NCBI GenBank assembly: GCA_051362555.1
Contig: CM120643.1
Coordinates: 27,160,848-27,224,847 of the forward strand
Source of the DNA: Lingula anatina
Taxonomy: Eukaryota > Animalia > Brachiopoda
DNA length: 64,000 nucleotides
Direction: 5' to 3'
Shown here: positions 18,345-64,000 of the stretch, one piece after another
Position numbering within the stretch: the first letter of the stretch is position 1
How the letters are laid out: the number at the start of each line of letters is the position of its first letter
Made by a program: the position numbers and the translations under genes
Notes under the pieces: generated by a model
What the model was told of the DNA's origin: nothing
The model's input: only the letters and a program-made list of their open reading frames with translations
Database searches by the model: none

Positions 18345-21300
18345 ATGAACATGATGTTTCCACTCACATGGATGGCTCTTATCGGCGTCTTAGCGTCGCT
18401 GGAGCTTATCAGAGGTGAACTCACGCTTATCTTCTTTAACTTCGAGCATTTCCTGGGACACGTTTGCAAATATTGTATCAAACATAATTACAGTTAGGGA
18501 TCTGATAAATAATTTTCTTGAATATGTACCTAACCATTTGTACAGGTGCACGGGGCAATTCTGCCATGGACCGCCTGATGGAGTATGTAGGTAACAGGAC
18601 CAACCCCCTGTCTATCCCGCTACCAGAAGATGTGGGTCCTTTGTCAGTTAACATAACAATGGTTATAAGCAACATTTTCCGCTTGGTGAGTAATATTACA
18701 TATATATATTCATATCCACCTCATCAGCAGCCACAAATTGATTAAATTTTGTTTTTAGGCTACAAAATAATATAGTAAAGACGATGGCTGAAGGAGGCTC
18801 AACATTTGTTTAAACGTAAAGCATCAATTTGACTTTATTTCCACATAATTTATTTGCGGCATTGTTCGACATCACAATTTTTATTTCGCTGTGCCTTGAT
18901 TGCACATTGTGTATGGAACATATACAAAATATAACTTTCTTTATTGAATATTATTGTTGCTAGTTTGTTCGTACAATAAGTATCTACCTGTAACATGAAT
19001 AATCTTAAACCCAAGTGACCGCGAAAGCTGACCTTTGTGATCATATGGACGATGTATTTTAATGATGTGCATGTAACACAAGGAATATACATGGGTCGTC
19101 TGAGCAAGGGGACGTGGGTTCTACCAGTCTTTCATAAACGGTACCACTTGTCTCCCCGCTTGGCAATCAGCACTTGCATTGGGGATTGAAGCAGGGTCTT
19201 TGGTCTGACAGAGAAAGATACTGTTAGTTTTCAAAAGTTTTCAGCGTCTCATTCGACAGCTGGGGTGTATCTACGCTATGGGCGTTAGAACGCTTTCACC
19301 CGAAGGGATAAAAATATTTATGTCCAGGTATTTTTTTCACTTATTGTAAAGTGCTCTGAAACTAAGTGTAGTGCGCTATATAATAACAATATTTTACTTA
19401 ATTATCTCATTATGCAGGACGAAGTTTATCAGACGCTGACTTCCGGCCTCTGGTTTGTTCTGGTGAGTGAGTATTATTATTATTATTTTTTTTTACATTA
19501 GTTATACTATATTTGCATTCAGATATGATGCCACTTTGTAAGCTAAGGGATTGGTGGCTGTATCCCAGTCAACCATGTGGTCTTTGTCTTAGTCCTAGTT
19601 TTTTTTAAATCTCAAATACATGTATGTGTTTAGGACTACAAATGGCTGACTGGGGTTTCAACTATTCTAAATCGTTCTGTAATTGTAAGTTTGAATTTTA
19701 ATATGACAATTAAAAATATAACAGCAGTGTTCTCATAATAATGATGTTCTTATATTATTATTATTATTATTATTATTATCATCGTTGAAGGTGTTGGCGG
19801 CATGGATGGTGATGGCGTATTAAAGTTATTATTTGTTCCTAATTTTGTGTGAATAACCAGACAGTCTTAAACATACAAATTTAGACGGGTGATCTTAATC
19901 ACCAGCAAGTTAATCAGCGAGTTAGCTATTCATTGGCTAATGATGGATTTCCTTCACACATTTTACTGTTTGATAACTTGACGTCACCACAAGTCAAAAC
20001 CGATTTTCAAATCACACACACAAGCATAAAAGTTAATAGGTCCTACTAGAAAAACTCACTTCTGTATTTTCTCCAACAGCACTGGACAGACTATAGACTC
20101 ACGTGGAACCCAGCGGAATATGGTAACATCTCCTTGATATCCGTTCCTTTGCAGAAGGTGTGGAAACCGGACGTAGAAATGTTCATCACGTAGGGCCCTT
20201 TGCTTCACTCATTTATTTTCTATTTATTATGCAGAATTGAACAGAGAAGCCTAATATACGTTTAGTAAAAACAGTTTGTTATTAACACTGTCCTTGTTCC
20301 TAACGCATGTAAAGTAGCACTAAAAAAGTAAGAAATATACATCAGGACCTTGTAGCATACCCTTTAACCGAGCACTACAGTCGAGACCCCAGCTGATTCT
20401 AAGTGTCATTCGTATTAATAGTTTAATATAAATATTAAAGTGTATTCCCCGTAGGCATACTCGGGTTTTGTAATGCAACAACTTGATATTTTGTTTCATT
20501 TTCAGCGCAGACGACAATCCTATGTTGTACAGTGCCACATACGGGGACGTGACAATGTGTCAGTTGAGATCCAACGGAACCGTCGAATGGTTGCCTCATC
20601 GCCGCGTGTCTAGTACATGCGCAGTTGATGTTTATTTCTATCCGTTTGATTCTCAGTCATGTGGGCTTCACATCTATTCCCCTACACTACCAGCTATATT
20701 TCTAAATTGGACAGTAGCATCACCTATTGACGCGACCCGTGGATCAAACCTATCGTCCAGAGAATGGGAAGTTATCAGCTTGGATCACTCTACGTATAAT
20801 AGCAAAGATGCTGCGGTATCAATAATCATTGAACTTAAGATAAATATTCGTCGCAACTTTTCCTTCTTTTCTCTTGCTATCTTGCTACCTTCGGCTCTCC
20901 TTGCAGTCCTTACTCTGGCCATGTTTTGGATCCCGCCTAACTCCACGGATAAAATGTCTATGGGTATGTAAACATTTTGTGTTGGGCCTATATAGTTATG
21001 CTAATCATAAAATGTCCTTGGGTACGTGCTTCTTTCCAGTAATATCAACATTTAACTTAAATGGTCGTAAAATGAGAAGGCAGAAAATTGATGAGATCAG
21101 AGAAATTACGAAGACAAACGATTTTTTTTCTATAGAAAATATTAAAAAATAAACGACTCACAATATTAAGTTTGGTTCTAGGAATGGCCATATGGACCTG
21201 TCTCTGTGTGATCCTCCTGGTTTTGGTTGGTATTGTTCCTGGGGGCGGCGGAAGAATCCCCTTAGTTGGTGAGCATATATTTTTAAACGATCATCACATG

Positions 21301-22313
21301 TCGTTAATATCCGACGCCGTACGTTTGACAGCCGTAGAGAAATAAGGCTTTTGGGTCAGGGACGGATCCAGAGATAATTTGTGACAGTCTTCCAAACTGA
21401 CGTTGTTGATCCATCCTCCATTTTTTAACGTCTTCCGACAGAAAAAAAAAATTAAAAATTAGATACCCATCAATGTAAACTTGGCAAATCTGAACGTCTT
21501 TCGGAAGACCCAGAAGACGGCCTCAATCCGCCCCTGTGACTAATAGCGGAATGGGCTGCTCATTCTTTACTGAGATGCGTGTAATGCCAGTTGTATCTTG
21601 GGCTCCCCAGGTTCTTTCTTCATCTTGAATCTGGTTCTTGTGACTGCAACGATGATCGTCATGATTGGCACGACAACAATGGCAGAGAACTGCACCCCCG
21701 TGCCACGGTGGCTCAGCAAGGTGAGGCAACCCTAAATGTAATTTATAAGATTCGTTTTCCACAATTGCTTTCCATATCAAATTACTCGTTGAGGGTGAAT
21801 TGCTAGTGGCAAACTGTGTAATTTTGAAAATTTTCTCCGATAGCGTTTTTTTTTTTTTTAACATGGATATTGCTTCGATTAAGAGAATAAAATAACTATC
21901 AAGATGTTTCTGTGATGATCCCCGATGTTCGGTATTCCTGGGGAGTTACATGTACATGTGGCAATGCATCCTACAGCGTGCATGGTAAGGACACTGTTTT
22001 TTTAATTGGCAACTATTTACAGGTGATGATGACGCACGTGTTTGGCACGTATGGTACAAACCAAGCACAAAATGAACGTATTGAGCCCCAAGAAAACTCT
22101 GCGAGGAAAGCTTCAGTGGTTGAATCTATTGAGAGGAATGTCAACAGCGATATTGAGAAAATACCATGTCACAGCTGTGGAAAAGAAAGAAAGGGATACC
22201 AGAAAGAATGGCAGTGTATTGCGAAATCATTTGATCGCCTTGTTTTTTGGTTGTTTTGTATAGGAATCACAATTTCAAGCGTGTGGATTTTAATTGATTT
22301 CTTCAATGGTTGA
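18345..22313 (+). CDS. Divergent nAChR-like Cys-loop channel subunit, copy A (about 436 aa, 8 exons)
   Basis: Exons 18345-18414, 18546-18685, 19418-19462, 20080-20189, 20506-20963, 21182-21268, 21611-21720, 22023-22313; all GT-AG and in frame. Signal peptide, WTDYRLTWNP, WKPD, Cys-loop CAVDVYFYPFDSQSC, M1 LLPSALL, M2 TDKMSMGMAIWTCLCV, MA-M4 EWQCIAKSFDRLVFW. No loop C vicinal cysteines. Confidence 0.9.
19090..19395 (+). mobile_element. Degenerate SINE-like element (Meta-domain-like core, L2-type tail) in intron 2 of copy A
   Basis: Core GGTACCACTTGTCTCCCCGCTTGGCAATCAGCAC resembles Meta-domain SINE cores. The end TGTAAAGTGCTCTGA...GCGCTATATAA resembles L2-derived tails. Recognised by eye only. 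Confidence 0.45.
21357..21536. mobile_element. Small degenerate MITE in intron 6 of copy A
   Basis: Imperfect terminal inverted repeats CAGGGACGGATCCAG ... TCAATCCGCCCCTG; no clear TSD. Confidence 0.4.
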
Positions 22314-22544: not shown

Positions 22545-23106
22545 TGTAAGAATCGGATAACCGATTTCTTGTTTATTTTGATTAATGTAAACTTAAGCGG
22601 CCCATTTGCGTGATCTTTTACGTGAGGAGGCAGGATTGCGAAGAAAATTGATGGACACTTCAACAGCGTGGCTGTTTTGTAGTTAGCATTCCGTAGGAAT
22701 AGACTTTTTTTTGCGACACTCCTTTGTGCTTTTATGATAGTTCAGACACCACATAGTATAATAACGTCAAGTTACTTAGATGTTCAGTGATTTTGTAGAG
22801 GAAATTCAGCTTTCCAGGATAAAAAGGAATAATTGACATCCACGAAAGCCAGCAATGTGAGTTTTTTATGATTGCTCTGTTGTACTGTATAAGTTAGTTT
22901 AACATTCTTAATGCAGTTTAAAATTGTTTGTAACACTCTGTTTTATTTAAGAATACTTATTTATGTTTGTTTTTTTTTTTGTTTTCGTTTTAGTCAGAAC
23001 CATTGGACTACAAGTACATGCGTTTCTGATGCTGGTTATTGAAATAAACATACAGAATATTAATCAAGACTTTATTGTTTTCACTTAAGATCCGTGGGAT
23101 CTTACA
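22545..23106 (+). repeat. 5' LTR (562 bp)
   Basis: Near-identical to 28863-29430; I see one substitution and two poly-T length differences. Confidence 0.95.
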
Positions 23107-23128
23107 GTTCTGAATTGGCTTTCCAACC

Positions 23129-26100
23129 ATGTCACTTCAAGAGGAAATAGAAAGACAGCGTCATTTAATTGAAGAATTAGAGAGAGACATTGATCAATCT
23201 ATTCACTCTCTTTTAAGAGACATAAAGGGAGAACATTCACTTCTTACCAGTACACCGCACAATGTAGCTACTAGTACATCAATCAGTGAAGCTTCTATAA
23301 GCCCCATACCTCATCCAGGGACACCATACACATGTAGATCAGAGGGTATTTCCACAATGAATGCAGTGTCTGTGACATCTCCTGTCACAATGCCATCACT
23401 TAGTGCATTAAGTTCGAACATTCCAGCTTTCAGCCAGACGACATTCACATCTCACAATGTACCAGTTGTACCACAGTCTCAGTCTGCAATATCAACATCT
23501 AATATACCAGTGTCTGTTGCGGTACCACTCACACCTTTTCCTAAACCTGTTTGGACAATGCAGGCTGCCCCTCTCACTGCTTCGCATGCAACACAGTCCA
23601 TGACACCACAGGATGACCGTTTACTGGGAAGTATTCCTGTATCATGTGAATTACCTGCGACTTCTCAGCTTACAGTGCCATCTCCAGCTGTATTTAGTAC
23701 AAGCTCACCCGACTTTATTCACATATCACAACCAAATCTTTATCATCCCCATGGTGCAGTAGCATTCTCCGCATCTCAGACTCCGATTCCAACGAGATTT
23801 GAAACAACAGCGTCTGTCGCAGTGCCACCCGCACCCACGCCTGCATACGGTATTCCATCTCAGACTATACAACACAGTGCAGTATATACACCAGTATCTG
23901 AGGCTGTGCCACCAACAAGTGACTCATTGACCCCACTGATAGATGCAATGCAGTTGCCAAAGGTAGAATTGATGCCTTTTAATGGAAACCCTCTGCAGTA
24001 CCACCCATTTATGAGATCATTTGAAAACATGGTAGGACATAAAAATGTTCCTCATGCTGCAAAATTGGCCAGGCTCTTGCAATATTGTCGCGGCGAAGCT
24101 TATAATCTTATACAGTGTTGCTGTGTTATGGAACCAGAACAGGGATATGCCACGGCTTTAAAGTTATTGAAAGAAAGGTACGGAGACAGTTACACTATTT
24201 CCCAGGCCTGGATACAGAAAATCATGAATAGGGGACCGGTGACGGATAATGTAGCTTTACGTCACTTTGCTGATGAGTTGAGATGCTGTTTTGAAACCTT
24301 GCGTGCAGTTGGGAGAAAGGAAGACATAAATAGTGGGGACTACCTACTTAAGATTGTACAAAAGCTGCCCCAATATATTAAACCCAGATGGTTGAAGTTG
24401 GTACACAGTATCCGGTCTGAAGGAAGAAATCCTGACATAGGGGACTTGGTTAACTTTATCTCTTTAGCAGCAGACGAAAGGAATGACCCTGTTTTTGGCC
24501 AACTTCTGTCTACTAGCAGAGAAGGAAGGAACAGACAGATCACTGCCAATTACAGCACAAGTACCGACAGTCCACTGTGTGCCTGCTGTGGTTCACATCA
24601 CAGTTTATTTAACTGTGAAGAATTCAAAGGTTTGAGAGTACAAGATAGACTAACTTTAGCAAAACAGAAGAATTTATGTTTCAATTGTTTGAGAACAGGA
24701 CATGTGGCCTTAAGATGTCCAGTGAACCGAGTATGCTCAGTAGAAGGGTGTGAACAGAAGCATACGAAATTTCTACATCTACCCCAGAGAAATGCAAACC
24801 AGAATATAGATGAAACAAATACTGAAGAAGTTGCTTGTAATGCCACAGGGGCCGGGGTGGGCAAGCAAAAGATTGCACTTCCCATCATTAGTGTGAAGGT
24901 CCGTGGGCAAGGTCAAACCCAATTTGTTGAAACATACGCTCTTTTAGATAGTGGCTCAACTCAAAGTTTCTGTTCAGAAGAGTTAACGAGGTCATTGAAC
25001 TTGGAATCTACAAGAAAAATTCACAACATTGTTTTAAACACACTTGGTCACCAAAAGAGAGTATTCAGTAAATCTGTAAACTTGGAGGTGACAAATGCAG
25101 ATGAAACTTTGATATATGACATGACAGATATATTGACTAGGCCCAAGCTAAATATAGGCACTGATAATATTGTTACTCAGGAAGAGTTGGACAACTGGCA
25201 ACATTTGAAGGACATAAAGTTACCAGAAGTAGACATTGACCAAGTGCACATTCTTATCGTACAAGACATGCCAGAATTACTCAAACCAAGAGAGATCCGA
25301 GAAGGAAAGACAGGTATGCCATATGCAGTGAGAACAGCACTGGGATGGACAATCAACGGTCCAATTGGAGAAAGGTCAAGAGAAAATGTTGGAAGTTATT
25401 TTGTGAACACTTCCAATGAACTCCAGGACCAGATCAAGAACTTGTGGAAGCTAGATGGACATGATGAAGATTTTTTAGCTATGTCTGTCAATGACAAGAA
25501 GGTTATGACTATCTGGGAAAATTCATTACACTATGATGAAGAAGAAAAACATTACAGCATGGACATTCCATTCCAAGAGCAGCCACTAAATCTCCCAGAT
25601 AACTGGCCTGTGGCAAATTTCCGTTTACAGTGCCTCAAAAGAAGGTTACAGAAAGACAAGTGGCTCCAAGAAAAGTATGTTGAAAGTATGGTAGAACTAC
25701 GAGACAAAGGTTATGCAGAAGAGGTGAAAGAGGTCAGTAGAGATGATGGTTATGTTTGGTATCTGCCCCACCATCCAGTATTACACGCCAGAAAACCAGA
25801 TAAAGTACGTATTGTTTACGACTGTGCAGCCAAGCACAAAGGCATTTCCCTGAATGATGCAATATATCAAGGCCCAGACTTAACAAACAAACTGATTGGA
25901 GTTTTACTGCGTTTTAGGCATCACCCCGTTGCTTTCATGGCTGATATTGAAGGAATGTTTTTACAAGTTAAGGTGAATGAGAATCATCGTGACGTGCTTC
26001 GATTCTTGTGGTGGAAGGATGATGATATGAACAAACCAGTTCAAGTTTATAGAATGACAAGGCATTTGTTTGGAGGGGTATGGAGTCCAAGTTGTGCATC

Positions 26101-28731
26101 ATTTGCCCTACGGCGTACTGCGCTGGACAATTCCTTGAATTTCACCTCTCAGGCTATAGAAACTGTATTGCGGAATTTTTATGTTGATGACTGTCTCAAA
26201 TCAGTACCTGATACGCAGCATGCGATTCAGTTAGTTAAAGAATTGCGAGAATTATTGGCACTTGGAGGGTTCAAGCTTACGAAGTGGATAAGCAATTCAC
26301 GGGAACTCCAACACTCTATTCCAGAAGCAGAGTGGGCCAAAGGAATCCCAACCTTAGATCTTGAACAAGATGAATTACCTGTGGAGAGAGCATTAGGTGT
26401 TTTGTGGGATGTGGAATCTGACAAACTTGGGTTCAATACACTAGTCAAACAGAAACCCATTACCCGCCGAGGACTGTTAAGTGTTGTAAGCTCTGTGTAT
26501 GATCCCTTGGGATTTGTCAGCCCCTTTATTCAGAAAGCGAAAATGATGTTCCAGATGCTGTGCAAGTTGAAGATCGGCTGGGATGATCCATTACCAGAAG
26601 ACATAGCTCATCAGTGGAACAAGTGGCAAAATGACTTACCTTTGATCAATGAGATGAAAATTCAGCGATGTTTAGTACCACCAGCATTTGGTACCCCGAT
26701 TGATATTCAACTTCATCACTTCGCAGATGCATCTGAAAATGGGTATGGTGTCGTTACTTACCTACGTTTGACAAACGGAGAAGGCCACGTACACTGTGCA
26801 TTTGTCATGAGTAGAGCTAGATTAGCCCCTTGCTCAGCGACCACAATACCCAGATTGGAGTTGTCTGCAGCTGTTATGGCAGTAGATTTAGATGAATTGC
26901 TACGGAAGGAATTGGACTTTTCCTTTTCTCCTTCTGTCTTCTGGTCTGATAGCATGATAGTACTGCAATATATTGCAAATGAGGACAAGCGATTTAAGAC
27001 TTTCGTGGCAAACAGGATTGCTAAGATAAGAGAAGTGACCTCACCAACTCAGTGGAGGCATATAAGTAGCAAATTAAACCCAGCTGATGACGTATCACGT
27101 GGTGCGACGCCCCAAGAGTTGGTCAGTAAGGAACAGTGGATTTGTGGTCCCTGTTTTTTGCAGTTTCCTGAGGCGGAATGGCCTAGTTCACCTTACGTAG
27201 CAGAAGTAGAAGCTCATGATACTGAAGTAAAACAAGATGTTAGTGTCTACCATGCTGAGATTATGAAAACGGACATACTTGACAAGCTGATGGCAAGATA
27301 TTCCACTTGGAATGAGCTAAAGAAAGCAGTAGCGTGGATATTAAGAGCAAAGTCTGTACTTAGGAGTAAAGTCTTAAAAAGGGTACAGCAAACGTGTGAT
27401 TTGCTCTCTGTTGAAGAACTTAATGTGGCTGAAGAAGAGATTGTTAAGTATGTTCAAAGAAACATGACAAGGGAACAGTTTCAGAGCAAAGGTTTCAAAA
27501 GACTATCGCCAGAAACCTTACCCAGCGGCATTTGGGTGGTTGGCGGTCGTTTGAAATATTCCAGCCTTGTGGAGACAGCAAAACACCAGTGGATTTTGCC
27601 ACAAAAGCATCCAGTTGTTTCTTTGATAGTGAGACATTATCATAATGAAGCAGGGCATACAGGAGTGGAACATGTCCTTTCAGACATCAGACAGCGTTAT
27701 TGGATTATGAATGGCCGTGCTGCCGTTAAACGAGAGATCTATAGGTGTATGTTGTGCAGAAAGTTAAAGGCCCCGACACTTGAACAACGAATGGCTGATT
27801 TGCCGAAGAATCGCACAGAAGCATTTCTACCACCCTTTACTATAGTGGGTGTTGACTTTTTTGGACCATTCTTTGTAAAACGTGCACGTAGTGAAGAAAA
27901 GAGGTACGGTTGTCTGTTCACGTGCCTAACATGCAGAGCAATACACATTGAGATATCTCATTCACTAAGCACCGATTCGTTCCTGAATGCTATGCAGAGA
28001 TTCATTTGCCGACGAGGAGAACCTGAGGAAGTTCGCTCTGATAATGGAACCAATTTCACAGGAGCACATCGTGAACTGAGGGAACATATTAGTAGGTGGA
28101 ATCAAAACAAGATAACGGACTGTTTGCGTCAAAGGGAAATTAAGTGGGTGTTTAATCCTCCCTGCGCATCACATATGGGAGGGATATGGGAACGGCAAAT
28201 TAGAACAGTGCGATCAGTTCTCAGCTCATTGTTGACTCAACAACCGCTCAAGTTGGATGATGAGGCTCTTTGTACTCTTATGTGCATAGTGGAGAATATT
28301 GTGAATTCAAGGCCTATCACAAAGCTTTCTGATGATCCCAAAGACCTGCTGCCACTGACGCCTAATCATCTTTTACTGTTGCGTTCAGGACCAGTGTTAC
28401 CTCCTGGGGATTCGTGAAACAAGATATGTACCATAGGCGGTGGAAACAGGTTCAGTATATTGCTGACTTATTTTGGCAGCGTTGGCTAAAAGAATATCTG
28501 CCTTTGTTACAAGAGCGGCAAAAGTGGTTCAGTGTTAAGCGAAATCTCAAAGTTGGGGATTTGGTATTAGTGAAAGATGAAAGTACTCCGCGTCTGCAAT
28601 GGCCAATGGGCTTGGTGACAAATACAAGTCCAAGTATGGACGGCTGTGTTCGCTCAGTCCAAGTTAGAACACAACATGGAATCTTCAAGAGACCAGTGAC
28701 AAAACTTTGTCTTCTGGAAGGTGTAGACTGA
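23129..28731 (+). CDS. Bel/Pao Gag-Pol polyprotein, with a frameshift near 28410
   Basis: Gag (FNGNPLQY...F), three Cys/His knuckles (CACC..H...[21 protein letters not shown]), protease LLDSGS, RT FYVDD, RNase H FADAS, integrase HHCC plus VDFFGP/SDNGTNF/WER. The C-terminal domain ([17 protein letters not shown]) continues in another frame at 28414-28731. Confidence 0.95.
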
Positions 28732-28862
28732 TGTGACGGAGGTTAAAGTGGTAAAGTCATAGACCTTTTAATTACAACCTAGACATAATATAGTAATCTG
28801 GGACTGTAGTTAAATTTATAATATAATTTATGCAATGTGGGTACATGTGCATAAGGGGCCGG

Positions 28863-29430
28863 TGTAAGAATCGGATAACCGATTTCTTGTTTATTTTGAT
28901 TAATGTAAACTTAAGCGGCCCATTTGCGTGATCTTTTACGTGAGGAGGCAGGATTGCGAAGAAAATTGATGGACACTTCAACAGCGTGGCTGTTTTGTAG
29001 TTAGCATTCCGTAGGAATAGACTTTTTTTTTGCGACACTCCTTTGTGCTTTTATGATAGTTCAGACACCACATAGTATAATAACGTCAAGTTACTTAGAT
29101 GTTCAGTGATTTTGTAGAGGAAATTCAGCTTTCCAGGATAAAAAGGAATAATTGACATCCACGAAAGCCAGCAATGTGAGTTTTTTATGATTGCTCTGTT
29201 GTACTGTATTAGTTAGTTTAACATTCTTAATGCAGTTTAAAATTGTTTGTAACACTCTGTTTTATTTAAGAATACTTATTTATGTTTGTTTTTTTTTTTT
29301 TTTTGTTTTCGTTTTAGTCAGAACCATTGGACTACAAGTACATGCGTTTCTGATGCTGGTTATTGAAATAAACATACAGAATATTAATCAAGACTTTATT
29401 GTTTTCACTTAAGATCCGTGGGATCTTACA
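28863..29430 (+). repeat. 3' LTR (568 bp)
   Basis: Direct repeat of 22545-23106, followed by the TSD GTGTA. Confidence 0.95.
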
Positions 29431-30432
29431 GTGTATACATAAACATTGTAGACGTATCTCTTTCTTTCATTCTTCCTCTCTCCCTCTATCTTCCTTTTTC
29501 ATGTATACAATTTCCTGGGAATATCTCTTTGGTTGTCGTTTCTATCACCACGCCTTTCAATATCAAAGACAATTATAAGACGGACGTTTTGGAAATTCAT
29601 CGATGGGTTTCATGGCTGCTTCCTATTTTTATCAGCAAAGTCGAACAACTTTCCATAACAATATACACTGAAGAACAAACATATCTCCAGCAAACTGGTT
29701 CTGTTTATCTTTTGAGATAATTTAGGGTAAATAAGTTGAAGTCGCCTTCAATTTCAAGTAGTTAGATAAAAGTAATTTGAATCAACAGTGCACTTTTTGA
29801 AAGTCGTTAATTCCAGTCACACACACTGGATTTTGTCATAATGCACACCATTATAACTTTATCATTATAAATAGTAGTCATTAACTAATAGTTGACTCTC
29901 CCTCAGATTCTCCCACAGTCTTTTTTTCTTACTGGAAAATGCGCATCAAAAGTAAGTACATTTACCCTATTTTCAGAACAACAGAGACGTTTAAGAGTAT
30001 CTACGAGGAATTGCTTTTATCACAGTTGTGCTTACACATTTCATGTTTCATGTTGATCGACACTCGATGAGTAACTTCTTCAAATATATATATATTTAGA
30101 ATACTCGCGCCGTATAATGTATTTATTGGAAGCAACAAAGTGCATTACTTCCGCAGGCTACTTCCTCATAATTGCAAGAGAACAATATTCCATTAGCTAG
30201 TTATTTTCAACGCACCAAGTCCAGTAACTGATTGTTTTAATGTTTGTTTAGGCTGAAAGGGAGTTGCAATTCCTAGCGGGGTAAAACAAATCAATGTTTG
30301 GCATCTACAATGAGCTCGTGTCGTACAACTTCTATTTATATTACCACAGTACAGGGGTTCCTACGCATCGTTGAAAAATACCAATCGGTCTTTCCTTCTG
30401 TCCTTTGATGAAACGATGTTATAACAAGCACA

Positions 30433-33400
30433 ATGAAGGAATGGATACGGATCTTTTTAGTGATTTATCTAATCACAGGTGAAATAATATTTACTTTAAG
30501 CAGTTTACTATTTTATTTTATTAATAATTTAGTGTGTTGAGAAAGTTTGAGATAGTGTACTAGTTGGTTAAACCTTTAAATGTTTTGAGAAATGGCACGT
30601 GTAATGCATGTAATTGCCATGGTGTTGCACCATCATCAGTCACGAATTTCTTTGTAAAATGAATATATCTGTACATGGTATTTCTGGCAGCTACACGAGG
30701 GAATTCTGACATGGACCGTCTGCTTGAATATGTCAGCAACAAGACGAACTCCCTGTCTATCCCGCTACCTGAGGATGGAGGACCTCTGCCTTTCAGAATC
30801 CTACTGAGGCTAAGCGCCGTATACAACCTGGTATGTGGTCAATTATGTCATCATATTCACTTAAGGAATTAAAGTCTAAGAAATTGACTCGCAGCTCTTC
30901 CTACATTCAGTGGTATTTAATGTCGGGCTGTCTTCAATTTTCTCACTGTTCTAGCTTACTACACACCACAGCCAAGAAACACTTATATTAGATACACTTA
31001 TACATATATACAGTGTGTAGCCATGGGAAAATGCCATGGCGCAAGAGGAAAACGGACAAGCCCTGTCCGTTGCGGTTGAAAGCGGAGAGCGACAGTTAAA
31101 ATTACCAGTACACTTTGACATATTCCTTGAGTGTTTGACAGACTTTTCAAAATGCTAGGAATATGACGTACATTTGAAACATTTAAAGTAACATTTCTTT
31201 TTAAAATAATTTTTCTTGCAATTCAGGACGAAGTTCACCAAACGCTGACTACAAGTTTATTGTTCATTATGGTGAGTTTTCCCTGTAACAATTAGGCCAG
31301 TATAACGTGAAGCGGTACTTACTTCATTATTTCAGCAAAATGATTTTAACACTATACCTCAATTTATTTTGAAGCATTTGTATTTTACGGTTTTAATTAC
31401 GTACAGTGTGTCTATTCATATAGCCTTCATATAGCCGTCGCATACGCCGCCGTCGACGTGCACTTTCCACTCTCAAAGCGATAAATTGGAAAAAGAATGA
31501 CTTTTTATCATCGAACTAACTGGCCTGCTAAAGGACTAAAATACATGTTAAGTTCGAATAGCAGCTTTACTGGGCAATTTACTTTAATTCTGCAGTAGGT
31601 GATATTGATGTTTAGCACCATGCACATCTAATTTTTTTCGGCGTCATCATAATTCTGAACTTAATGTCTGTACATTTGTTAAGCTTTGCTGCCTTGTTGC
31701 ATCCTCATCTAAGATACATACGAACATTGAACGTATAGCTTACTCTGAGGGAATATTATGTAACACTTTGTGAAAAACTTGAAAGGAGATCTATGCACAC
31801 ACATACACACTCACACTGTATTCACTGTCAAAAGATATGTGCGCAACATTCTTAGTTTAAGTACCTTCATGTTTTACAGCACTGGACAGACTATAGACTC
31901 AGGTGGAATCCAGCAGAGTTCGGCAATATTTCCTTGATAACCCTACCCTTACACATGGTCTGGAAGCCGGACATTCAGATTTCAAACAGGTGTGTATATG
32001 ATAAATTTTAACCATGAACAAGAAACTGGTTTAAAACTGCAGTGGGCCTTCTTTGTTAATATCTGAGGTAAAACGAAACCAAAAGAGGTGATATTTTTAT
32101 AGACATATATTAAAAAGAAGGGAAATGAAATGACATTTACTGGATATTAGATTTTAACAAGCATTTTTCCCACAACAGTAAGTAAGGCAGCAGGTAGATT
32201 TCATTTATTTTTGTTTTATGCTCCATAACTGTTTTGTTCGCAGTGCAGACGACAACCTCCTGCTATACAGCGCCACGCTAGGGGAGGCAGTCACGTGCAG
32301 ATTGTTCTCCAGTGGCGTCATTGAGTGGACTCCTCTTCGTCACGCGTCTACCACGTGTCCAGTAGATGTTTACTTTTATCCATTCGACACCCAGTCATGC
32401 AGACTTTACATAATGTCCCCGACGTTACCAAACACTTATATCAATTGGATAATTGAGTCGCCTATCGACGATACCCAAGGCACAAAGCTTTCGTTGACAG
32501 AATGGGAAACTGCGGCCCTGAATCACTCCACAATCCAAGTACACGATGATGAAGACAATATAGCAATAACTGTCTTGGTATATATAATACGAATTCAACG
32601 ACATCTTTCCTTCTTTTCGCTCACGATTTTTCTACCTTCAGCACTTCTTGCAGCCCTTACCCTGGCCATGTTCTGGGTTCCTCCCCAGTCCACCGATAGA
32701 ATGTCTATGGGTAAGTGCATATTTCATGTACACCTTACATACCGGTACCTTGACAAATTTGGCTTGCAAGTATGTTTTAGTCGAACGCATGCATTGCAGT
32801 ATATATGTTAAAAAAAAAAAGCAGATGGATCGGAAAAATCATGGAATTCTACTCTTCCCAGTTGAAATTTGCCTCTACATTTTTACAGTCAAAGGGGTTA
32901 GATCATGCTAAGTATTACAATCATAATCACAAATATATATAATCACACATCAAGTAATTTATTGAATTATCATATAACCTGTTATGAATTGATCCTAAGC
33001 CTGTTTATACATTTCTTAAGCAAAGAGAGCTGGACAATGGCACTACACTATAAAATAACATAGAATGGTTAATTGTGCCAAACCAAATCAAGTCCGTGAT
33101 TCCAAGTTAATACTTTGTTTCCAGGAATGGCCATATGGACCTGTCTCTGTGTGGTCTTACTGGTGTTAGTCGGTATCGTCCCCGGTGCTGGGGGCAGGAT
33201 CCCCCTACTGGGTGAGACATATACAACATAGCCTCCACTTAAGTAGTATACAAAATGCTCTAAGAGATTTAATTTCCAAAGTTGTCATAATTTACTATGT
33301 ACAAATCAAGTGACCTTGTAATCAGTAAATATAAACTCGCAATTTGTTTGCAAACATTTGATAATTATACATCTATTTATGTATTGTTTGTACATAGAGT

Positions 33401-34084
33401 AACAGAATCAGTGAATGCATAAATTGTCTATGTAATGTAATTGTTTTACGTGGCAATAACATAATGTTATGCAGGTTCTTTCTTCATCCTGAATCTGGTT
33501 CTTGTGACTGCTACGATGATCGTCATGATTGGTACGACAAGAATGGCGGAAAACTGCACCCCCGTGCCTCGGTGGCTCAGCAAGGTAAGGTGTAAGTGAT
33601 CAATGATTTTAAGAATGATTTGAATTTTTCTTCAGTCAACAGCTAATATTGAGATAGGTTTTACCTCCAATATTTCGATGTCTATCAGGACATCTTCTTG
33701 AGGGAATGAGGCTATCCAGGTGAATAGCCTCTACTCAGGAGGTGTACTTGCCCCCCCCCCCCCCCCATTGTCTTAGGAAAGGGAGGTAGAGGTCAGAGAG
33801 GATGGCACCATCATTTCTATTGAGACTGGTCCCTGTCTTTTTTATGTGGATGGCTTCCAGAACTTTTCTGTAATTTTCCCTTGGCTCACTGTCAATCACC
33901 TTGATTTTGTCGATTATAGGGCCATACGCTACTTTATGTCCAGATTGTTCCTCATGCTGGCTTAATGCTGACTTGCTGTTTCTATTATTGACTGACTTTT
34001 GGTGTTCGGCTATTCTCTCTGACACTGATCTTCCCGTTTCGCCTATATATTTCTCACCACACCCCTCACATTCCATTTCATAGA

Positions 34085-34119
<35 letters not shown>

Positions 34120-41400: not shown

Positions 41401-41771
41401 ATTCGTCGCAATTGGTCTATTTAATACAGACATACAATACGGTACATAAAGCCAAGCTATCTGATATATCAGTATTATTTTTGCATCAGGTTAGTAAGAA
41501 TATACTGGCGCCTTTGCTTTGTATGTGTGGCGGTCGTGCAACTGAGACGCGAAAAATCTATCTATCCACAATTTTAGTGGATGAATTCACCGTGAAGAAT
41601 CTCAGCACTGACAGCAAAGCAAGTTGTACCAACGGTGAAGAGGACAGACAAAAATACAGAGAAGAGTGGCAGTACATTGCGAGCATATTTGATCGGCTTT
41701 TCTTCTGGGTGTTTTTTATCGGGATAACCATTAGTTGTGTGTGGATTATAGTTGATTTTCTTGGGCGTTAA
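38479..41771 (+). CDS. Divergent nAChR-like Cys-loop channel subunit, copy C (about 428 aa, 8 exons)
   Basis: Exons 38479-38521 (in-frame upstream ATGs from 38407), 38694-38833, 39202-39246, 39613-39722, 39959-40428, 40896-40982, 41172-41281, 41490-41771. Cys-loop CAIDVYYYPFDSQSC; loop A WTPH; M2 TDKMSMGMAIWTCLCV. Confidence 0.9.
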
Positions 41772-50398: not shown

Positions 50399-51540
50399 AT
50401 GAGGACAATTCTGTATTTCTCTATCACACTGTTCATCACAGGTAAATATGTTCATCTTGTGGTTATTCTTACGCGGGACAGGCACAACATTATTACCCAG
50501 TGCGCAAGTGTTTTATCCATTTATCTCCTTAGTAGCTTGTTTATGAGTGTATTTCGCTTCTGTGTTCATTCATTTCCCCGTTCATTTCTCTGTGTTCATT
50601 TTCTTTTCCTTTTTATACATTTGTAGTTACTTTTCATTCTTGTCTATACTTCTTTCCTCAATCGTCATCCCCCTCTCTCTATTTATATTTATCTATCTAT
50701 TGTAATTGGCACATTTAAGATAAACATAAAGCACATACCCAATGGTCAATTTTCAGGTGTCCACTGCAATGAGGACTTGGATAGACTGACTGAGCACGTG
50801 ACAGCTCGGTCCAAACCTCTCGTGATGCCGGTGTCCAGGGATACTGGACGCGTTACGGTCACTGCCCAGATGTACTTAAGCCAGATTTTTAATTTAGTAG
50901 GTTTATTGCATTTCCCACCTTCGTTGGTTTACTTGTTTGTGGACAGGGTATCTCAAAACGTTCTGCACAGATTTTAAACTAATTTGTATGGCACATGACC
51001 CTCCAAGGATAGATTACGGGGTATTTTTAAGAGTAAGCGGCAGACACTATTTTCTTAAGTAATGATATAAGCTGTTACGATTTTTCAATTCTAATAATGA
51101 CTTCTAAAAACAGTTCAGTAACGGGGGCTTTACGTTTTGTGTAAGACACTCGTATAAATGCCATAAAAGTTCTGCTTTAAGCCGAGGGAACGCTTTGGGG
51201 TTTGAAACAGTGTACTGTGAAATTAATAACGTGTTTTAAGATTGTCATTAATTTTTTTCGGATACGTGCTTTCGAAGAGTAAAGTTTCAGCTGCCTTTAC
51301 GTTGACCACGGCTCAAGACTGACAGGCAGATCTACCGGGGTAGATCAGTTGTCCCTATCACAAAATCATGTCAAACAAAAAGTCTTTATAGTAACCAATG
51401 TGCTCTCTGTGATCGTACTATGTTTCAATTCAGGACGAGGTGCACCAGCTGTTGTCATTTTCAGCTATCTTCCTAGTGGTAAGTAAATGTGGGCTCACAG
51501 AGAAAAATGCTTGCATCTTATGAGACTAATGAAATTGTTT

Positions 51541-51624
<84 letters not shown>

Positions 51625-52226
51625 TTTTTTTTTTGCAATTACTTTAATTTTTAAATTGTGAAAAATTTTTCCTAGACACTTATTCCAATTTAATTTGACT
51701 CTTAATCTAACTTGATTAACGATAGTGCATGTTCTTGGCAATAAGACAACAACCCAGCAGGCGTAGTGACGATGGATCAACGTTGAAAACGGGTTGTGAC
51801 GTTGAATTGCCGTTGATCTACCTAAATTCAACGTAAAATCAGCGTTGATCCAGCCACGTCAAATCACCGTCATAATGTGACGTTGACTCAACGTTGTTGT
51901 TTAGTCGTCGTCATGCAAGACATGGATTGAAATTTAAAATATTAAATATTGAAAATGTGATACTTTGTTTATCAATAATGTAACTAACTTCATCAAAATA
52001 TTAAAAACGGTGTTTTAAAGTAAAAGTGACAGTTGTTTTGTGTCTTAAGTGAACTAGTGAATTTTCTTAACTTGTTATTCAGAAATACATTCCAATAAAC
52101 TTCCTCGCAAGGTCAGCTAACACTAGGATGAATAAGTCGCTGTAAATTTGATGAAATGAAGTTAACAAAGGTGACAGTTCTCGGTACACTGTTATAGATA
52201 GAAAGGTGGAAGTGACTGTGACTTTG

Positions 52227-52268
<42 letters not shown>

Positions 52269-55200
52269 CTAAACCTTGGAAACCCTTACTTAAAGGCTAT
52301 ACATACATGTATATACCCTACATATATTTAGCCATTAAACATGTCCTACTGCTAAACACATCCAGGCTAAAAGGGTGTACCATGCTTAGGTGCAAAACAT
52401 GCTAAGGAGCTGAATGCGTTGAAAAAAATCAGACAAAGCAGGCACTTGGATGTTTTTACAGTGTACGTTATAATTGTGTACCTGTGGTTTGAACCAAAAG
52501 TAAAAACATTTCAGGTAATTTTAATGTCTTTTCATGCAAGAATGTTGTCTAACAACTGGGGTTGATACAATGTTGTTATCTGACGTTGATACAACGTTGT
52601 TATTTGACGTTGATACAACTTTCAAATCCGTCTTATCAACGTTATGGTTCAACGTTGTTTCAACGTTAAAACAACATAATTTGCCCGCTGGGAAGAGGAC
52701 CATCACCAAGGTCAAAATGCATGTGTTTTTATTGAAATAAGAAACAAATGTGCTTTTCCATTCAAACCTGACTCTAGAAATGGAACGACCGACGCTTGGC
52801 ATGGAACGCCTCAGAATATGGAAATATTTCCAGCATTGCTCTGCCTCTGTCGTCATTGTGGATTCCTGACTTGGAGATATCGAACAGGTAAAGGTATTTT
52901 GTAATTTTGTATTTACTAGTACGTGTACATGAAATCAGTTTATATTTGTTTAATTTTATCATTAACATATTTTTTTGTTCATTAATGTACGTATTTATCA
53001 GTAATACATAATACTTGCAAAGAAATGTGTGTTCTCATTTTATGCCAAGTACGCTGCAAGTAGCTGAGTTCTGAGTTGTGTATTTATCATCTTCCCACCA
53101 GCAGCGACCCATGGCAACACCGAGGCCTATCATTTCATCACCACTGCACTGAGTTCTAAACTTCATTCAGAACGCCAATATCATGCTTTGCTGAAATACC
53201 TCATGTATACCTCATATTAACCATGTGCTCTTATCTTAAAAGGCGGTATATAATGAAAATAATTGGAATTCTTAAACATTAAGAATTACAGCTGAAATAA
53301 GTATGTATTAAAAAGAAAAACATCATATTTTTTTTTTACTTTATCGTTTCCAGTGCAGACGAGAATACATTGCTTTACAGGAGCTCTGGTCCGGCTAATT
53401 CCGTAAAATGTCGGATATTTTCGGACGGTAACGTGCAGTGGACGCCGCATCGCAGGCTATTGACTGTGTGTACCGTAAATGTTTTAACTTATCCATATGA
53501 TTACCAAGACTGTAACGTTGAGATTCACTCGACCACTATGACTGACGATGTCCTTGATCTACACTATAAGCCGGCTAATAACAATAACACTGTTGATGAG
53601 GACCTCTCGGATGATGATCATTACGATTTAACTCTATCCTCAACATGGACACTGGTGGCCAGTAATGTCACGAAAGTCCATCACCATACCGACCATGACA
53701 GGATTACCTATCTGATATATTCCATTCGTATTCAGCGCCGGTTCTCGTTTTTCTCTCTGGTAATGCTGTTGCCGTGTGTGCTCCTGGCGGCGCTTACTCT
53801 GACTATATTCTGGTTATCACCGCAGACGACAGACAAGATGTCCATGGGTAGGTTTTCCTTTCTTAGCTTTACCAGGAAGCACACATTTGGAAACCTCGGG
53901 TCATTATGCATATGAATCTTGGTAACTTGCTTCTGAGATGCTTTGCTGTCTTAGCATTTAAAATAAAAATATCACTAAAATGTCACTAAATGTCAAATGG
54001 CAATTCACTTTTTCATACTTATTCATCAAATTTTGTTTGCAAATAACAGTAGCCAATATAGTACCTGCAATTTTGAAAATTTATATTACATGTATTAATT
54101 GCAAATAGTGACATTTACATTTCAGACATTAAAAAGAGTGTTATTGTATTTTCTGTTCATTTTAGGAATGGCAATATGGACGTGTTTTTGCGTGATTCTT
54201 CTTATTCTCGTTGAGGTTATTCCTGGAAATGGAAACGAACATCCAATGATAGGTAGGTATGGATTTACCCCGGTACTTGCACCTTACACAAGAAAACGCT
54301 TTATATTTTGGTTACATTTCATTACGTTTTTAAATTCAGTTTTATTAATTAATTAATTTATTTATTTATTATCACAAAGGAGTGGTTGCCCCCACAACAC
54401 AAACCCCACTCACTGACTACACCCAATGTTAACATAGTCATGCTACCTGTAATTGTAATCACATGAATAAGTGATAGATAAAAATGTTCACACGTTGTTG
54501 TTAATCACTCAGACTGAGTTGAAACGATATTTAAATTTTCTTACACCTTTTCCTTTTCCAGGATTTTTCTTTGTCATCAACCTGGTTCTGGTAACCGTCA
54601 CAATGATCGTCACAGTGATCACAAACAGGATACGAGAGGCTGATACCCCCGTTTCTCCATGGCTTAAAATGGTAAGACGTATTTTATTTCACCATAGTTT
54701 GTTTCATTTATAAATTACTTCATTATAGTTACAGGTCGTGTCGTTTTAACGGTATTAAAACACATTTTTTCATAATCCATATTTGTTTTAATTCAGATTT
54801 CTTCAAAGTTTTTAAAAACTTCATTCCATCCCGTCTGCATGTTTTTGACGTTTCGTCTAGGGTGTTAATGATTCAATTTTTACCCATTTGAGGTGGCTTT
54901 TTTAATGGAATCTAGTTGAAGACCCTGACGACTAATCAGCAATTTGATCCACTTCATTGGAAAGACATAAATAAATCAAATACCATTTGGTACACATATT
55001 ATCAAGAAAGATGCTTGTTTGGTTGTAATATATATATGCATTTCTTTTCTTTTTAAATCATTTAATTTACTTATATATTTTTTGTATCGGAATGGTCTTG
55101 TATAATACGCCTCCTATCTTTCTGCATAAAAGGATCTCATGAATTGGTCATGTATGCATCTTTACAGATAGCCTTTAGTGTGCTTTCGCCACTGCTGTGT

Positions 55201-55545
55201 ATGAAGATGCCATGTAAGCAGAAAGCCAGCCTCATCGACCCAGCTAAAAGCGGCACCGTCCCTGGGGAATGCTTACCTGACGTGACCTCCGCACCGAATA
55301 CTGAAGACCAAATCTTAAATACAGCACTGAACACAAGTGACCCCCTACTGGCCATCATACGTCACAAGCAACTACTGCGCATGCGTCAGAAGGAAACTAA
55401 AGAGAAAATAGAGGAGGAGCGGCGAAAGGTGGCAGCAGTGTTCGACTGTTTATTTTTCTGGCTATTTTTAATTGGGTTGCTGGGAGTTTGCTATTGGATT
55501 GGCACCACAATCCGTAACAACACTTTTTCTAACATAAAGCAATAA
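50399..55545 (+). CDS. Divergent nAChR-like Cys-loop channel subunit, copy E (second subtype; about 468 aa, 8 exons)
   Basis: Exons 50399-50441, 50757-50896, 51434-51478, 52778-52887, 53354-53847, 54166-54252, 54562-54671, 55168-55545. WNDRRLAWN, WIPD, Cys-loop CTVNVLTYPYDYQDC, M2 TDKMSMGMAIWTCFCV, M4 VAAVFDCLFFW. Confidence 0.9.
51546..51618. repeat. (TA)n microsatellite
   Basis: Directly visible; absent at the equivalent site in copy F. Confidence 0.95.
51753..52692. mobile_element. Non-autonomous DNA transposon (EnSpm/CMC-like) in intron 3 of copy E
   Basis: Ends CCCAGCAGGC / GCCCGCTGGG, probable 2-bp TSD AA, and many subterminal CAACGTTG repeats. The empty site is in copy F (about 62835-62865). 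Confidence 0.75.
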
Positions 55546-60174: not shown

Positions 60175-60219
<45 letters not shown>

Positions 60220-61090
60220 AAAAGGCTTTTCAAATAAACAAATAACATGATTGGGGTATCGTTATTATTACTGCAAATGTGAAGCACGTTCTTTATTACC
60301 TGACAAGAAAGTTTTAATCAATTTTATTTATTTATAAAATTATAATTAGATGTTCACAAATAATATATCATTAATGTCACTGACAAAATATGGTCAACGG
60401 TATATACTAACAAAGTGTGCAGTATATGCATCAGTTTGATTTTCCGTAGACTCGTTCATCAATTGAAAGAGGAATGTCACGCACTTGCCTTGTGGAAAAT
60501 CCATTTCTTTTTTAAACAATCCCATATAGCGGCATACAGAGGTCTTGGGTGGGAAATGCGTGAGTGGTGGCGTCAAACCAATTGATTATCTTTCCATCCA
60601 TGGGTCGATAATTCACGCATTTATCTAAATCACTTTTCTGATTGAAACCCTTTTTAAAAAGACCTAAAAGTATTGATCTTGTATTATAACATGTAAAAGC
60701 CTTTTCTAACATTTGAGGCCCATTAGTCTGTGATGAGCTTTTGTTAATGATTAGGCAAACAGGATGCCGAACATCACAGATATACACTCTGAAGATTGAA
60801 TGTTGGGATTGCAATTTGCAGATGACACATGGTTTCCAAACAGAGCAATGCTCATTACTTCACCCTGGGGAATTCAGAATCGAGTCACCTGTGTTTTAAT
60901 CGTTTCCTTTCTGTTGCATATTGCTTCTAGTTTGCTAGTTCAAATATATTTAAAGAGTTTTTATTTCCGTTTGGGCGTATTGTTCAGTATCAAGGTAAGA
61001 GCACTGCGTATTTATATGACTTGGTGTTCTGTTATCGTCAATTAGAGAACGACTACCGTCAGGACAGCAGTCAGCATGAGATCAATCACC

Positions 61091-63959
61091 ATGAGGACAA
61101 TTCTGTATTTCTCTATCACACTGTTCATCACAGGTAAATATGTTCATCTTGTGGTTATTCTTACGCGGGACAGGCATATCATTACTACCCAATGCGTAAG
61201 TGTTTTATCCATTTACAGGCCTACCCAACTACCAGACTCGGCACCTAAGGATCCTGAATTAACCGATATTTCGGACCACACTGCCCGTTTTCAAGGTGTG
61301 TGTCGGATCGCATTTCGGAGTATCAGCCAGAACATCGACAGGATGAACCCACGCTCGGCTGTCACCTTGATTGGATAGTAAACAATTGTCGTAAAATCGC
61401 TATATGATTTTAAAACCGGGTGCATAAATTAGGAAGCCACTTAGATGAACCTTAGACTGCCACATTTATCTAATACAATGCAAAAAAAAAGCCCTATCAA
61501 AAGTGGTTAAAACATTCAAACCGAATGTCGTAAAGTCCCCATATAACCCCATAGAGGCAATAAAAGACAGTACTCTAAAGTAAGAGTACAGTTTAAGGTT
61601 GTTCAGCCGAGCGTGGATGAGCCCGCAGTCGTGCTACAAAATTTGTTCTGGGGTATGATACTCCGAAATGCGATCTGACACACACCTTGAAAACGGGTAG
61701 TGTGGTCCGATATACCGGTTAATTCAGGATCCTTAGGTGCCGAGTCTGCTAGTTGGGTAGGCCTGATTTATCTCCTTAGTAGCTTGTCCATTAGTGCATT
61801 TCGCTTCTGTGTTCATTCATTTCCCCGTTCATTTCTCTGTGTTCATTTTCTTTTCCTTTTTAAACATTTGTAGTTACTTTTCATTCTTGTCTATACTTCT
61901 TTCCTCAATCGTTATCCCCCTCTTTCTATTTATTTTTAGTCCTATCTATTGTAATTGGCACATTTAAAATAAACATGAAGCACATGCCCAATGGTCAACT
62001 TCCAGGTGTCCACTGCAGTGAAGACTTGGATAGACTGACTGACCACGTGACAGCCCGGTCCAGGCCCCTCGTGATGCCCGTGTCCAGAGATACTGGACGC
62101 GTTACGGTCACTGCTCAGATGTACTTAAGCCAGATATTCAATTTAGTAGGTTTATTGTTTACCAAATTTCGTCGGTTAACTTGTTTGTGGACAAGGTATC
62201 TCAAAAACGTTCTGCACATATTTTAAAGTAATTTGTATGGCACATGACCTTCCAGGGATAGATTACGGGGTATTTTAAACAGTAAGTGGTAGACACTATT
62301 TACTTTAGTAATTATATACAGTAAGCTGTTACGATTTTTCAATTCTAAAGATAAATTCCTCAAAAACACAGCTTCAGTAACGGGGGCTTTCGTATAAATG
62401 CGATTAAGTTCTGCTTTAAGCTGAGAGAATGTTTTGGGGGTTGAAACAGTGTACTATGAAATGAATAACGCATTTGCTATTAGTTTTTTTTTTTCGGATA
62501 CGTGCTTTCGTAAAGTTGTACGTTGACTGACAGCCAGATCTAGATCAGTTGTCCTCCAGTTACCCCAAGGTCGGGTAACTATTACAAAATCATGGCGAAC
62601 ACTTTGCCAAAGTATTTAAGGTAACCAATGTACTCTCTATGATCGTACTCTGTTTCATTTAGGACGAGGTGTACCAGATGTTGTCATTTTCAGCCATCTT
62701 CGTAGTGGTAAGTAAATTTGGGTTCTCAGAGAAAATGCTTGCATCTTATGATATTGTTTTATTTTATAATTTTTTTCCTAGACACTTTTTCCAATTTAAT
62801 TTGACACTTAATCTAACAATATTGCATGTTCTTGACAATAAGACAACACGACGACAATCACCAAGGTCAAAATGCATGTATTTTTTTATTGAAATAAGAA
62901 ACAAATGTGCCTTTCCATTCAAACCTGATTCTAGAAATGGAACGACGGACGCTTGGCATGGAACGCCTCAGAATTTGGAAATATTTCCAGCATTGCTCTG
63001 CCTCTGTCGTCACTGTGGATTCCTGACTTAGACATATCGAACAGGTTAAGCTATTTTGTTATATTTTATTTACATGTAGTCAGTTTATATTTGTTTAGTC
63101 TTATCTTTCACATATTTTTCTGTTACTCTGTGTACTATATATCAGTAATATATATGATATTTGTAAAGAAAAGGGTGTTCTTCTCTAAAGCCACGTACGC
63201 TACACGTAGCCGAGTTCTAAATGTGTATTTATCATTTTCCCACCAGCAGCCAGACATGCCAACACCAAGACATATCATTTTGTCTGCACTCAGTACTAAA
63301 CTGCATTCAGAACGTGAATATCATGATTTTCTGAAATACCTATAAATCATATGCTCTTATCTTAAAACGTGGTATATATATTATAGTAAAAAAATAACTG
63401 ACATGCTTAAACATTACGAATTACAGATAAAATAAGTATTCAAAAATAATCTTATATATATTTTCTAAATTTTATTTCACCGCTTCCAGTGCAGACGAGA
63501 ATGCATTGCTTTACAGTAGCTCTGGTCCGGCTAATTCCGTTAAATGTCGGATATTTTCGGACGGTAACGTGCAGTGGACGCCGCATGGCAGGCTATTGAC
63601 TGTGTGTACAGTAAATGTTTTAACTTATCCATTTGATTACCAAGACTGTAACGTTCAGATTCACTCGTCCACTATGACCGACGACGTCCTTGATCTACAT
63701 TTTAATCTGGCTAATTACACTGTTGATGAGCATTACGATCTGACTCTATCCTCAACATGGAAACTGGTGGCCAGTAATGTCAGCAAAGTCCATCACCATA
63801 CCGGCCCTGACAAGATTACCTTTCTGGTATATTCCATTCGTATTCAGCGCCGGTTCTCGTTTTTCTCTCTGGTAATGCTGCTGCCGTGTGTGCTCCTGGC
63901 GGCGCTTACTCTGACTATATTCTGGTTATCACCGCAGACGACAGACAAGATGTCCATGG
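61091..63959 (+). CDS. Divergent nAChR-like subunit, copy F (paralog of E; exons 1-5, continues past the window)
   Basis: Exons 61091-61133, 62006-62145, 62663-62707, 62935-63044, 63490-63959, all open. Cys-loop CTVNVLTYPFDYQDC; ends TDKMSMG|gt. Confidence 0.88.
61216..61765. mobile_element. 550-bp MITE with long TIRs (about 110 bp) and a 5-bp TSD, in intron 1 of copy F
   Basis: CAGGCCTACCCAACTA.CAGACTCGGCACCTAAGGATCCTGAATTAACCG... is inverted at the other end. ATTTA flanks both sides. Copy E has the empty site ATCCATTTATCTCC (about 50515-50528). Confidence 0.9.
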
Positions 63960-64000
63960 GTAGGTTTTCCCTTCTTAACTGTACCAGGTGGCACACATTT

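Follow-up and report, generated by a model that had tools for sequence, protein, structure and literature searches.

The closest described systems to the locus reported here are expansions of nicotinic acetylcholine receptors (nAChRs). The chemotactile receptors (CRs) of cephalopods arose by lineage-specific expansion with a remodelled acetylcholine (ACh) pocket (PMC11526382; 10.1101/2025.03.03.641191). Bivalves carry 99-217 nAChR genes, 55-65% of them in tandem arrays in two species; the full principal site is kept by 13 of 132 oyster nAChRs, and molluscan tandem nAChR genes are mostly (68-82%) intron-poor retrocopies (PMC6896357). CR-like clades outside the cephalopods are reported in MolluscaGenes, where independent ligand shifts were raised as a hypothesis (PMC13174522), and the annelid orphan Alpo4 keeps the loop B Trp and Leu9' (PMC10338036). 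Lophotrochozoans are already known to have tandem nAChR arrays, as well as numerous subunits in which the ACh site is incomplete (PMC6896357; PMC13174522). Here we describe an array of nAChR-like genes in the brachiopod Lingula anatina, located in a window of 64,000 nt that was the genomic scope of the analysis (GCA_051362555.1, contig CM120643.1, positions 27,160,848 to 27,224,847). New are an intron-rich brachiopod array, the complete loss of the principal site, and a natural Thr at the 9' gate of the pore. Neither "Brachiopod" nor "anatina" appears in the main text of Jiao et al. 2019 (PMC6896357), and a literature search, which reached few subscription papers and no supplements, found no Lingula or brachiopod nAChR array; the supplements of PMC13174522 and PMC10338036 could contain the clade.

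Between positions 18345 and 64000 we found six Cys-loop loci (A-F), all on the + strand, and an orphan exon 1. This agrees with the original prediction of at least six same-strand paralogs in two subtypes plus an orphan exon, except that D proved to be a pseudogene. From this census, the array comprises four genes that are intact, a fifth that is cut, a pseudogene and a relic:

18345..22313, + strand: gene A, 8 exons, 436 amino acids (aa), intact; exons 18345-18414, 18546-18685, 19418-19462, 20080-20189, 20506-20963, 21182-21268, 21611-21720, 22023-22313
30433..35850, + strand: gene B, 8 exons, 432 aa, intact; exons 30433-30478, 30691-30830, 31227-31271, 31880-31989, 32244-32710, 33125-33211, 33475-33584, 35557-35850
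38479..41771, + strand: gene C, 8 exons, 428 aa, intact; exons 38479-38521, 38694-38833, 39202-39246, 39613-39722, 39959-40428, 40896-40982, 41172-41281, 41490-41771
43728..43770, + strand: orphan exon 1 of the E/F type, encoding a signal peptide; it has a donor GT and homologous DNA upstream
45712..48545, + strand: gene D, pseudogene copy of C, start approximate
50399..55545, + strand: gene E, 8 exons, 468 aa, intact, loop C His-rich and loop F acidic; exons 50399-50441, 50757-50896, 51434-51478, 52778-52887, 53354-53847, 54166-54252, 54562-54671, 55168-55545
61091..64000, + strand: gene F, exons 1-5, the rest cut by the window end, intact that far; exons 61091-61133, 62006-62145, 62663-62707, 62935-63044, 63490-63959

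A six-frame scan of the window found five Cys-loops on the + strand, and Pfam matched Neur_chan_LBD or Neur_chan_memb on exon open reading frames (ORFs) of A, B, C, E and F. Because the Neur_chan_LBD matches on the exon-5 ORFs had E-values of 4e-10 to 7e-15, the Cys-loop identity of the array is not due to chance. Read exon by exon, the internal exons measure 140/45/110/458-494/87/110 nt with GT-AG borders, and the lengths 140/45/110 and 87/110 agree with the layout of the alpha7 gene; with eight exons per intact gene, the array is intron-rich, as had been stated. All exons of A, B, C and E join in frame without a stop, and each of these genes encodes an extracellular domain (ECD) of the beta-sandwich type, a C-x13-C loop bearing (F/Y)P(F/Y)D, and four hydrophobic segments corresponding to the four transmembrane helices (M1-M4). 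There are two subtypes, with identities of 56-60% among A/B/C, 90% for E/F and 38-46% between the groups.

The claims that a Cys-loop is kept by all copies, and four transmembrane helices by every copy lying fully within the window, do not hold for D. This copy has a TAG within the Cys-loop (46902-46904), a TGA in M2 (47690-47692, exon 6 at 47679-47765) and a 13-nt deletion that shifts the frame of exon 5 (46761-47217). Its exon 1 is decayed and its exon 3 is absent, with a short inverted-repeat element in the expected place (~46260-46445), related copies of which turn up in RNA reads. No further exons were found after the orphan exon 1 up to gene D.

Public models of the locus are truncated or fused, and surveys of protein databases (NCBI, UniRef) would therefore misread it. 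NCBI XP_013391402 (P0001) is gene A with 10 additional intron-derived residues and without M4, XP_013391399 (P0002) is the C-terminal half of gene E letter for letter, and P0003, also a L. anatina NCBI protein, is an F-like C-terminal half that agrees with F over 28 shared residues; all three lie on one contig of 1,055,544 nt. MetaClust entries fuse A-B-C-D or D-E. A further E-like partial model, P0219, is 96% identical to E and lies on a contig of 8,954 nt; it could represent either an allele or another paralogue.

Pocket positions are given in alpha7 residue numbering, with the protein P0047 (named alpha7-like) as reference. At Y93, W149, Y188, C190, C191 and Y195 the canonical residue was present in 0/5 readable copies, the register in loop C being loose. 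The vicinal cysteines of loop C that mark alpha subunits were absent from all five, as originally predicted. Loop B reads YSPTL, MSPTL, IPPTT, HSTTM and HSSTM across these copies and loop A reads MFIT, ISNS, IFNA, ISNS and ISNS, which bears out the reported replacement of the loop A Tyr and loop B Trp. Since beta2 (P0054) keeps Y93 and W149, and beta4 likewise keeps the loop A Tyr and loop B Trp, the loss exceeds that of ordinary non-alpha subunits. The loop D Trp survives in A and C only and is missing from B, E and F; the pockets therefore differ among copies. Loop C of E/F contains 3-4 His (an HHH run) and their loop F segment 6-10 acidic residues, while loop C of A has one His. A third ECD cysteine, common to all copies, falls at the V108-type position of alpha7, probably facing inward, and is not interpreted here as a new disulfide.

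The original prediction had overlooked the pore, and the M2 signature described here is an addition to it. The alignment of M2 with beta4 and alpha6 is free of gaps and gives Asp-1', Ser2', Ala6', Trp8', Thr9', Val13' and Leu16'. Most of it is encoded by one exon:

21182..21268, + strand: exon 6 of gene A, most of M2 (Ala6', Trp8', Thr9', Val13', Leu16'), placed by column count in the ungapped register against beta4/alpha6

Asp-1' of A is encoded at the end of exon 5, and the signature is repeated in B (33125), C (40896) and E (54166). All readable copies have Asp-1' and Lys/Arg0' and lack the Pro-Ala-Arg anion motif, and the array subunits are predicted to form cation channels. Among 190 aligned domains (window genes and search matches, 7 of them gapped at the M2 columns), Trp8' occurred in 12 rows, every one in the clade of the array, and Thr9' in 15, of which 11 were in this clade; Leu9' occurred in 112. 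In alpha7, the L9'T mutation shifted ACh potency 660-fold, slowed desensitisation and increased spontaneous opening (PMC4548482), and by analogy Thr9' may act in the same way in the array background. Residues W123, C170, P178, D180, C184, R248 and P260 (P0001 numbering) were invariant across 107 sequences; residues involved in coupling are among them, for example the Arg before M1 and the Pro and Asp of the Cys-loop.

An HMMER search of 1.84 billion representatives found no close relatives, the best single-domain matches being 30-38% identical; word-index homologue searches were insensitive and missed some of the query members themselves, including P0001 and P0049. All trees were quick, midpoint-rooted and had long branches, and their rows were without CR or ZAC sequences. 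In a first tree of the 190 domains, the window genes joined eight unnamed ENA/Logan proteins and a protein of Owenia fusiformis. A full-length tree of 62 rows, hand-picked from the search matches, united the window genes, the Owenia protein and 10 unnamed proteins in one branch with a Shimodaira-Hasegawa-like approximate likelihood ratio (SH-aLRT) of 100. Support for the branch was 92 (unstarred) in a tree of 45 rows built under a mixture model from the ECD only, an alignment that excludes the M2 trait from the support. In approximately unbiased (AU) tests with 26 rows, joining the window genes to beta2 (P0054) was rejected (p=0.0015), as was joining them to alpha7-like proteins (p=7e-5), whereas Owenia as sister was not rejected (p=0.096). 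The original prediction had proposed a phylogeny among its checks, with nesting in a characterised beta/non-alpha clade among the outcomes counting against it; the genes neither group with beta2 nor have the loop A Tyr and loop B Trp of canonical beta/non-alpha subunits, and they do not nest with alpha7.

The Owenia protein is of alpha type, with the loop C CC..Y and the loop B Trp, yet its M2 has Trp8'/Thr9'. Because the array groups with this alpha-type subunit and with unnamed non-alpha proteins, the lineage predates the array. The simplest reading would be that the pore changed first and that the pocket was lost later in Lingula. The wider clade (P0019, P0029, P0032, P0018, P0023, P0107, P0169, P0170, P0206, P0216, P0138 and Owenia P0215) mostly has the Trp8'/Thr9' M2, with variable pockets, and comes largely from short transcript-like contigs; our literature search found no paper on it.

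Rates of substitution were obtained from Nei-Gojobori counts with our own script. For the three A/B/C pairs, the ratio of nonsynonymous to synonymous rates (dN/dS) was 0.18-0.21 in the ECD, where dS was near saturation, and 0.10-0.18 in M1-M3. For E/F it was 0.39 in the ECD, with zero amino-acid change over 37 M1 codons; C against the dead copy D gave 0.33, and most cross-subtype pairs had reached saturation. Purifying selection constrains the intact genes, the ECD being more changeable. The pseudogene, the orphan exon and the recent E/F pair support a birth-and-death array, as had been suggested.

Expression was examined in eight bulk RNA runs labelled Lingula anatina, four for the stretch 38300-51500 and four different runs for 52300-64000, of which 6-30% each was read; A and B lie outside both stretches. 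Gene C was represented by about one read pair in one of four runs (X18), gene D by about one in X12, and the 3' exons of E by one or two pairs in X19 and X20; the pairs on E may have originated from F or a further close copy. No splice joints of the channel genes were found at the listing threshold in any of the eight runs. A C1q-domain gene located between E and F (58410-~59250, - strand, intron 58814-58978) was covered at a mean depth of 50-70 per mate class and was spliced, with 60 and 75 joint reads in X19 and X20, and thus serves as a positive control for these two runs; it was almost absent in X14 and X16. Depth at ~42090-42330, 46260-46445, 52300-52690, 56200-58160 and 60900-62070 was rejected as gene signal and ascribed to repeats, the reads having loose ends and falling on both strands; the traces that X14 and X16 show near 55800 may also be repeat-derived.

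The loss of the ACh-binding residues together with the unusual pore gate makes a response to another chemical likely, and the locus would work like an orphan or CR-type receptor expansion. Our tentative interpretation, to which we would give slightly less than an even chance, is that the array encodes non-ACh, low-threshold cation channels of a few, probably sensory, cells. An old lophotrochozoan nAChR branch would first have acquired the Trp8'/Thr9' pore, as seen in the Owenia alpha-type subunit; in Lingula, one copy may then have shed the aromatic box and multiplied in tandem, with the pores changing less rapidly than the ligand-binding domains. With a polar residue at the 9' gate, the channels would open at a lower threshold and desensitise more slowly, whereby weak ligands could yield sustained depolarising currents. 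A non-ACh chemical cue would open the channels in a limited number of cells, probably sensory ones, and the array subunits are candidates for mixing in pentamers.

A number of observations weigh against this interpretation. The pocket is not CRT1-like, as loop C segments have only 2-3 aromatics and those of E/F are rich in His and Asp. The ACh site is not uniformly missing from the wider clade, in which many sister proteins retain Tyr195 and the Trp of loop B, and the tree may be distorted by long branches. There was no sign of positive selection, every pairwise dN/dS being below 1 (with dS near saturation for A/B/C). Zero reads fell on E exons 1-3 in four runs, and on E exons 4-6 or F exons 2-5 in the four others; the trace RNA that was observed fits rare cells and also near-silence. 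Lastly, Alpo4 remained an orphan after screening (PMC10338036), so that such channels need not be sensory.

In a bolder form, the array would be a second, independent Cys-loop chemoreceptor family, produced in brachiopods by tandem duplication of an old lophotrochozoan nAChR branch that already had a low-threshold Thr9' gate, and whose ACh pocket was then erased and diversified; E/F would respond to metals or pH, and organic cues would act on A-C. As a whole, we regard this as unlikely. The separate origin originally proposed is consistent with the lack of any special closeness to cephalopod CRs (19-20% identity), but the lineage is older than the array and tandem nAChR arrays had already been described.

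It is improbable that the genes encode accessory, non-binding subunits that assemble with a canonical alpha subunit and alter the gating of an ordinary ACh receptor, with Thr9' reducing desensitisation. An accessory position requires no principal face, the loop D Trp is kept in A and C, and the transmembrane region is better conserved than the ECD, all of which would suit such a role. Known beta subunits, however, retain the loop A Tyr and loop B Trp, grouping with beta2 was rejected (AU p=0.0015), the loop D Trp is also gone in B, E and F, and a six-fold duplication with diverging pockets would be unexpected for a structural subunit.

Similarly doubtful is a function as orphan receptors that respond to an internal signal (a different transmitter, a metabolite, or an immune or endocrine cue), as for expanded bivalve nAChRs outside the nervous system. 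Developmental, immune and stress expression of expanded molluscan nAChRs, with the full principal site in 13/132 in oyster (PMC6896357), and the C1q-domain gene within the array are consistent with it, but the near-zero reads in eight bulk runs labelled by species only would tend to speak against broad expression and fast gene turnover would better suit external ligands. Least probable are ZAC-like channels, chiefly E/F, that metal ions or protons would open or that are already partly open at rest (which overlaps the sensory interpretation if the cue is sediment chemistry): the 3-4 His in loop C and 6-10 acidic residues in the loop F segment of E/F, the contribution of loop C to Zn sensitivity in ZAC (PMC11536092) and the spontaneous opening promoted by Thr9' in alpha7 (PMC4548482) point that way, but A has one His in loop C and structure-based identity to ZAC is only 18-19%, so that ZAC-like gating would be convergence.

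Other features of the window lie beside the channel genes. A recent, full-length long terminal repeat (LTR) retrotransposon begins ~230 bp past the stop of A:

22545..29432, + strand: BEL/Pao LTR retrotransposon between A and B, not part of the channels

Its LTRs are 98.8% identical, with TG..CA ends and a 5-bp target-site duplication, and it has an ORF of 1767 aa and a DUF5641 tail in a different frame. In the last intron of B (33607-34831), 512-bp inverted repeats (98%) flank a GIY-YIG fragment (weak Pfam match), possibly the relic of a Penelope-like retroelement. A tandem duplication of ~1 kb (80% identical) occupies 36043-38087 between B and C, and pieces of it also occur in the last intron of B. 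A multi-exon gene at ~1700-16000, immediately upstream of the array and likewise on the + strand, encodes ankyrin repeats (Pfam at 2985, 7242 and 7668) and, after them, has membrane exons that resemble Ion_trans/PKD_channel clusters of the Atlas (a lead only); it is probably a TRP-like channel. Two of its exons had no match in the PDB (phmmer).

Comparison with known channels was extended to structure. An alignment-based AlphaFold model of gene A, built with the 10-residue annotation insert of P0001, reached a predicted local distance difference test score (pLDDT) of 85; a single-sequence fold was discarded (pLDDT 41). The best structural matches of the alignment-based model were nAChR chains, and the matches comprised beta2 (Z 25.2, root-mean-square deviation (rmsd) 3.4, 317 aligned, 26% identity), alpha7 (Z 24.4, 24%), Alpo4 (Z 24.0, 25%), 5-HT3A (Z 23.6, 22%), CRT1 (Z 22.2, rmsd 3.7, 290 aligned, 19%), CRB1 (Z 20.7, 20%) and ZAC (Z 20.6, 18-19%). 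The ESM Atlas returned only generic nAChR clusters.

The array shares with CRT1/CRB1 an nAChR-derived pentameric fold, lineage expansion and an altered ACh pocket, and, as judged from sequence, it has lost the canonical ACh site as the CRs have. However, CRT1 and CRB1 are only 19-20% identical to gene A, against 22-26% for nAChR and 5-HT3 chains, and CRs are intronless (PMC13174522) whereas each array gene has 8 exons. Expression in sensory epithelium and ligands have been demonstrated for CRs, which are activated by poorly soluble compounds and not by ACh, while the array genes are known from sequence. With the nAChR-like genes expanded in lophotrochozoans (Jiao et al. 2019; MolluscaGenes 2026; Alpo4), the array has in common tandem lineage-specific organisation, incomplete ACh sites and a mostly orphan function, but the molluscan arrays are mostly intron-poor and the Lingula array is intron-rich; Alpo4 has the loop B Trp and Leu9', neither of which is found in the array genes. 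Vertebrate alpha7 and beta2 are the best structural matches (24-26% identity), but the array is without their aromatic box and Leu9' gate and grouping with them was rejected. ZAC is likewise a Cys-loop channel with a non-transmitter ligand, at 18-19% identity to the array model, and residues of its loop C contribute to Zn sensitivity (PMC11536092). As a small, fully modelled channel set, the array bears on whether nicotinic receptors were turned into chemoreceptors once, in cephalopods, or repeatedly among marine invertebrates. By tree path, the uncharacterised Owenia fusiformis CAH1796649.1 (P0215) is the nearest relative with a name; it is 27-33% identical to the array and has the Trp8'/Thr9' M2 in common with it, but retains the loop C CC..Y and loop B Trp that the array has lost, and so offers a natural "before" state. 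Since the wild-type 9' threonine of the clade is a known laboratory gain-of-function mutation, the clade provides a test of whether a weakened gate aids ligand switching.

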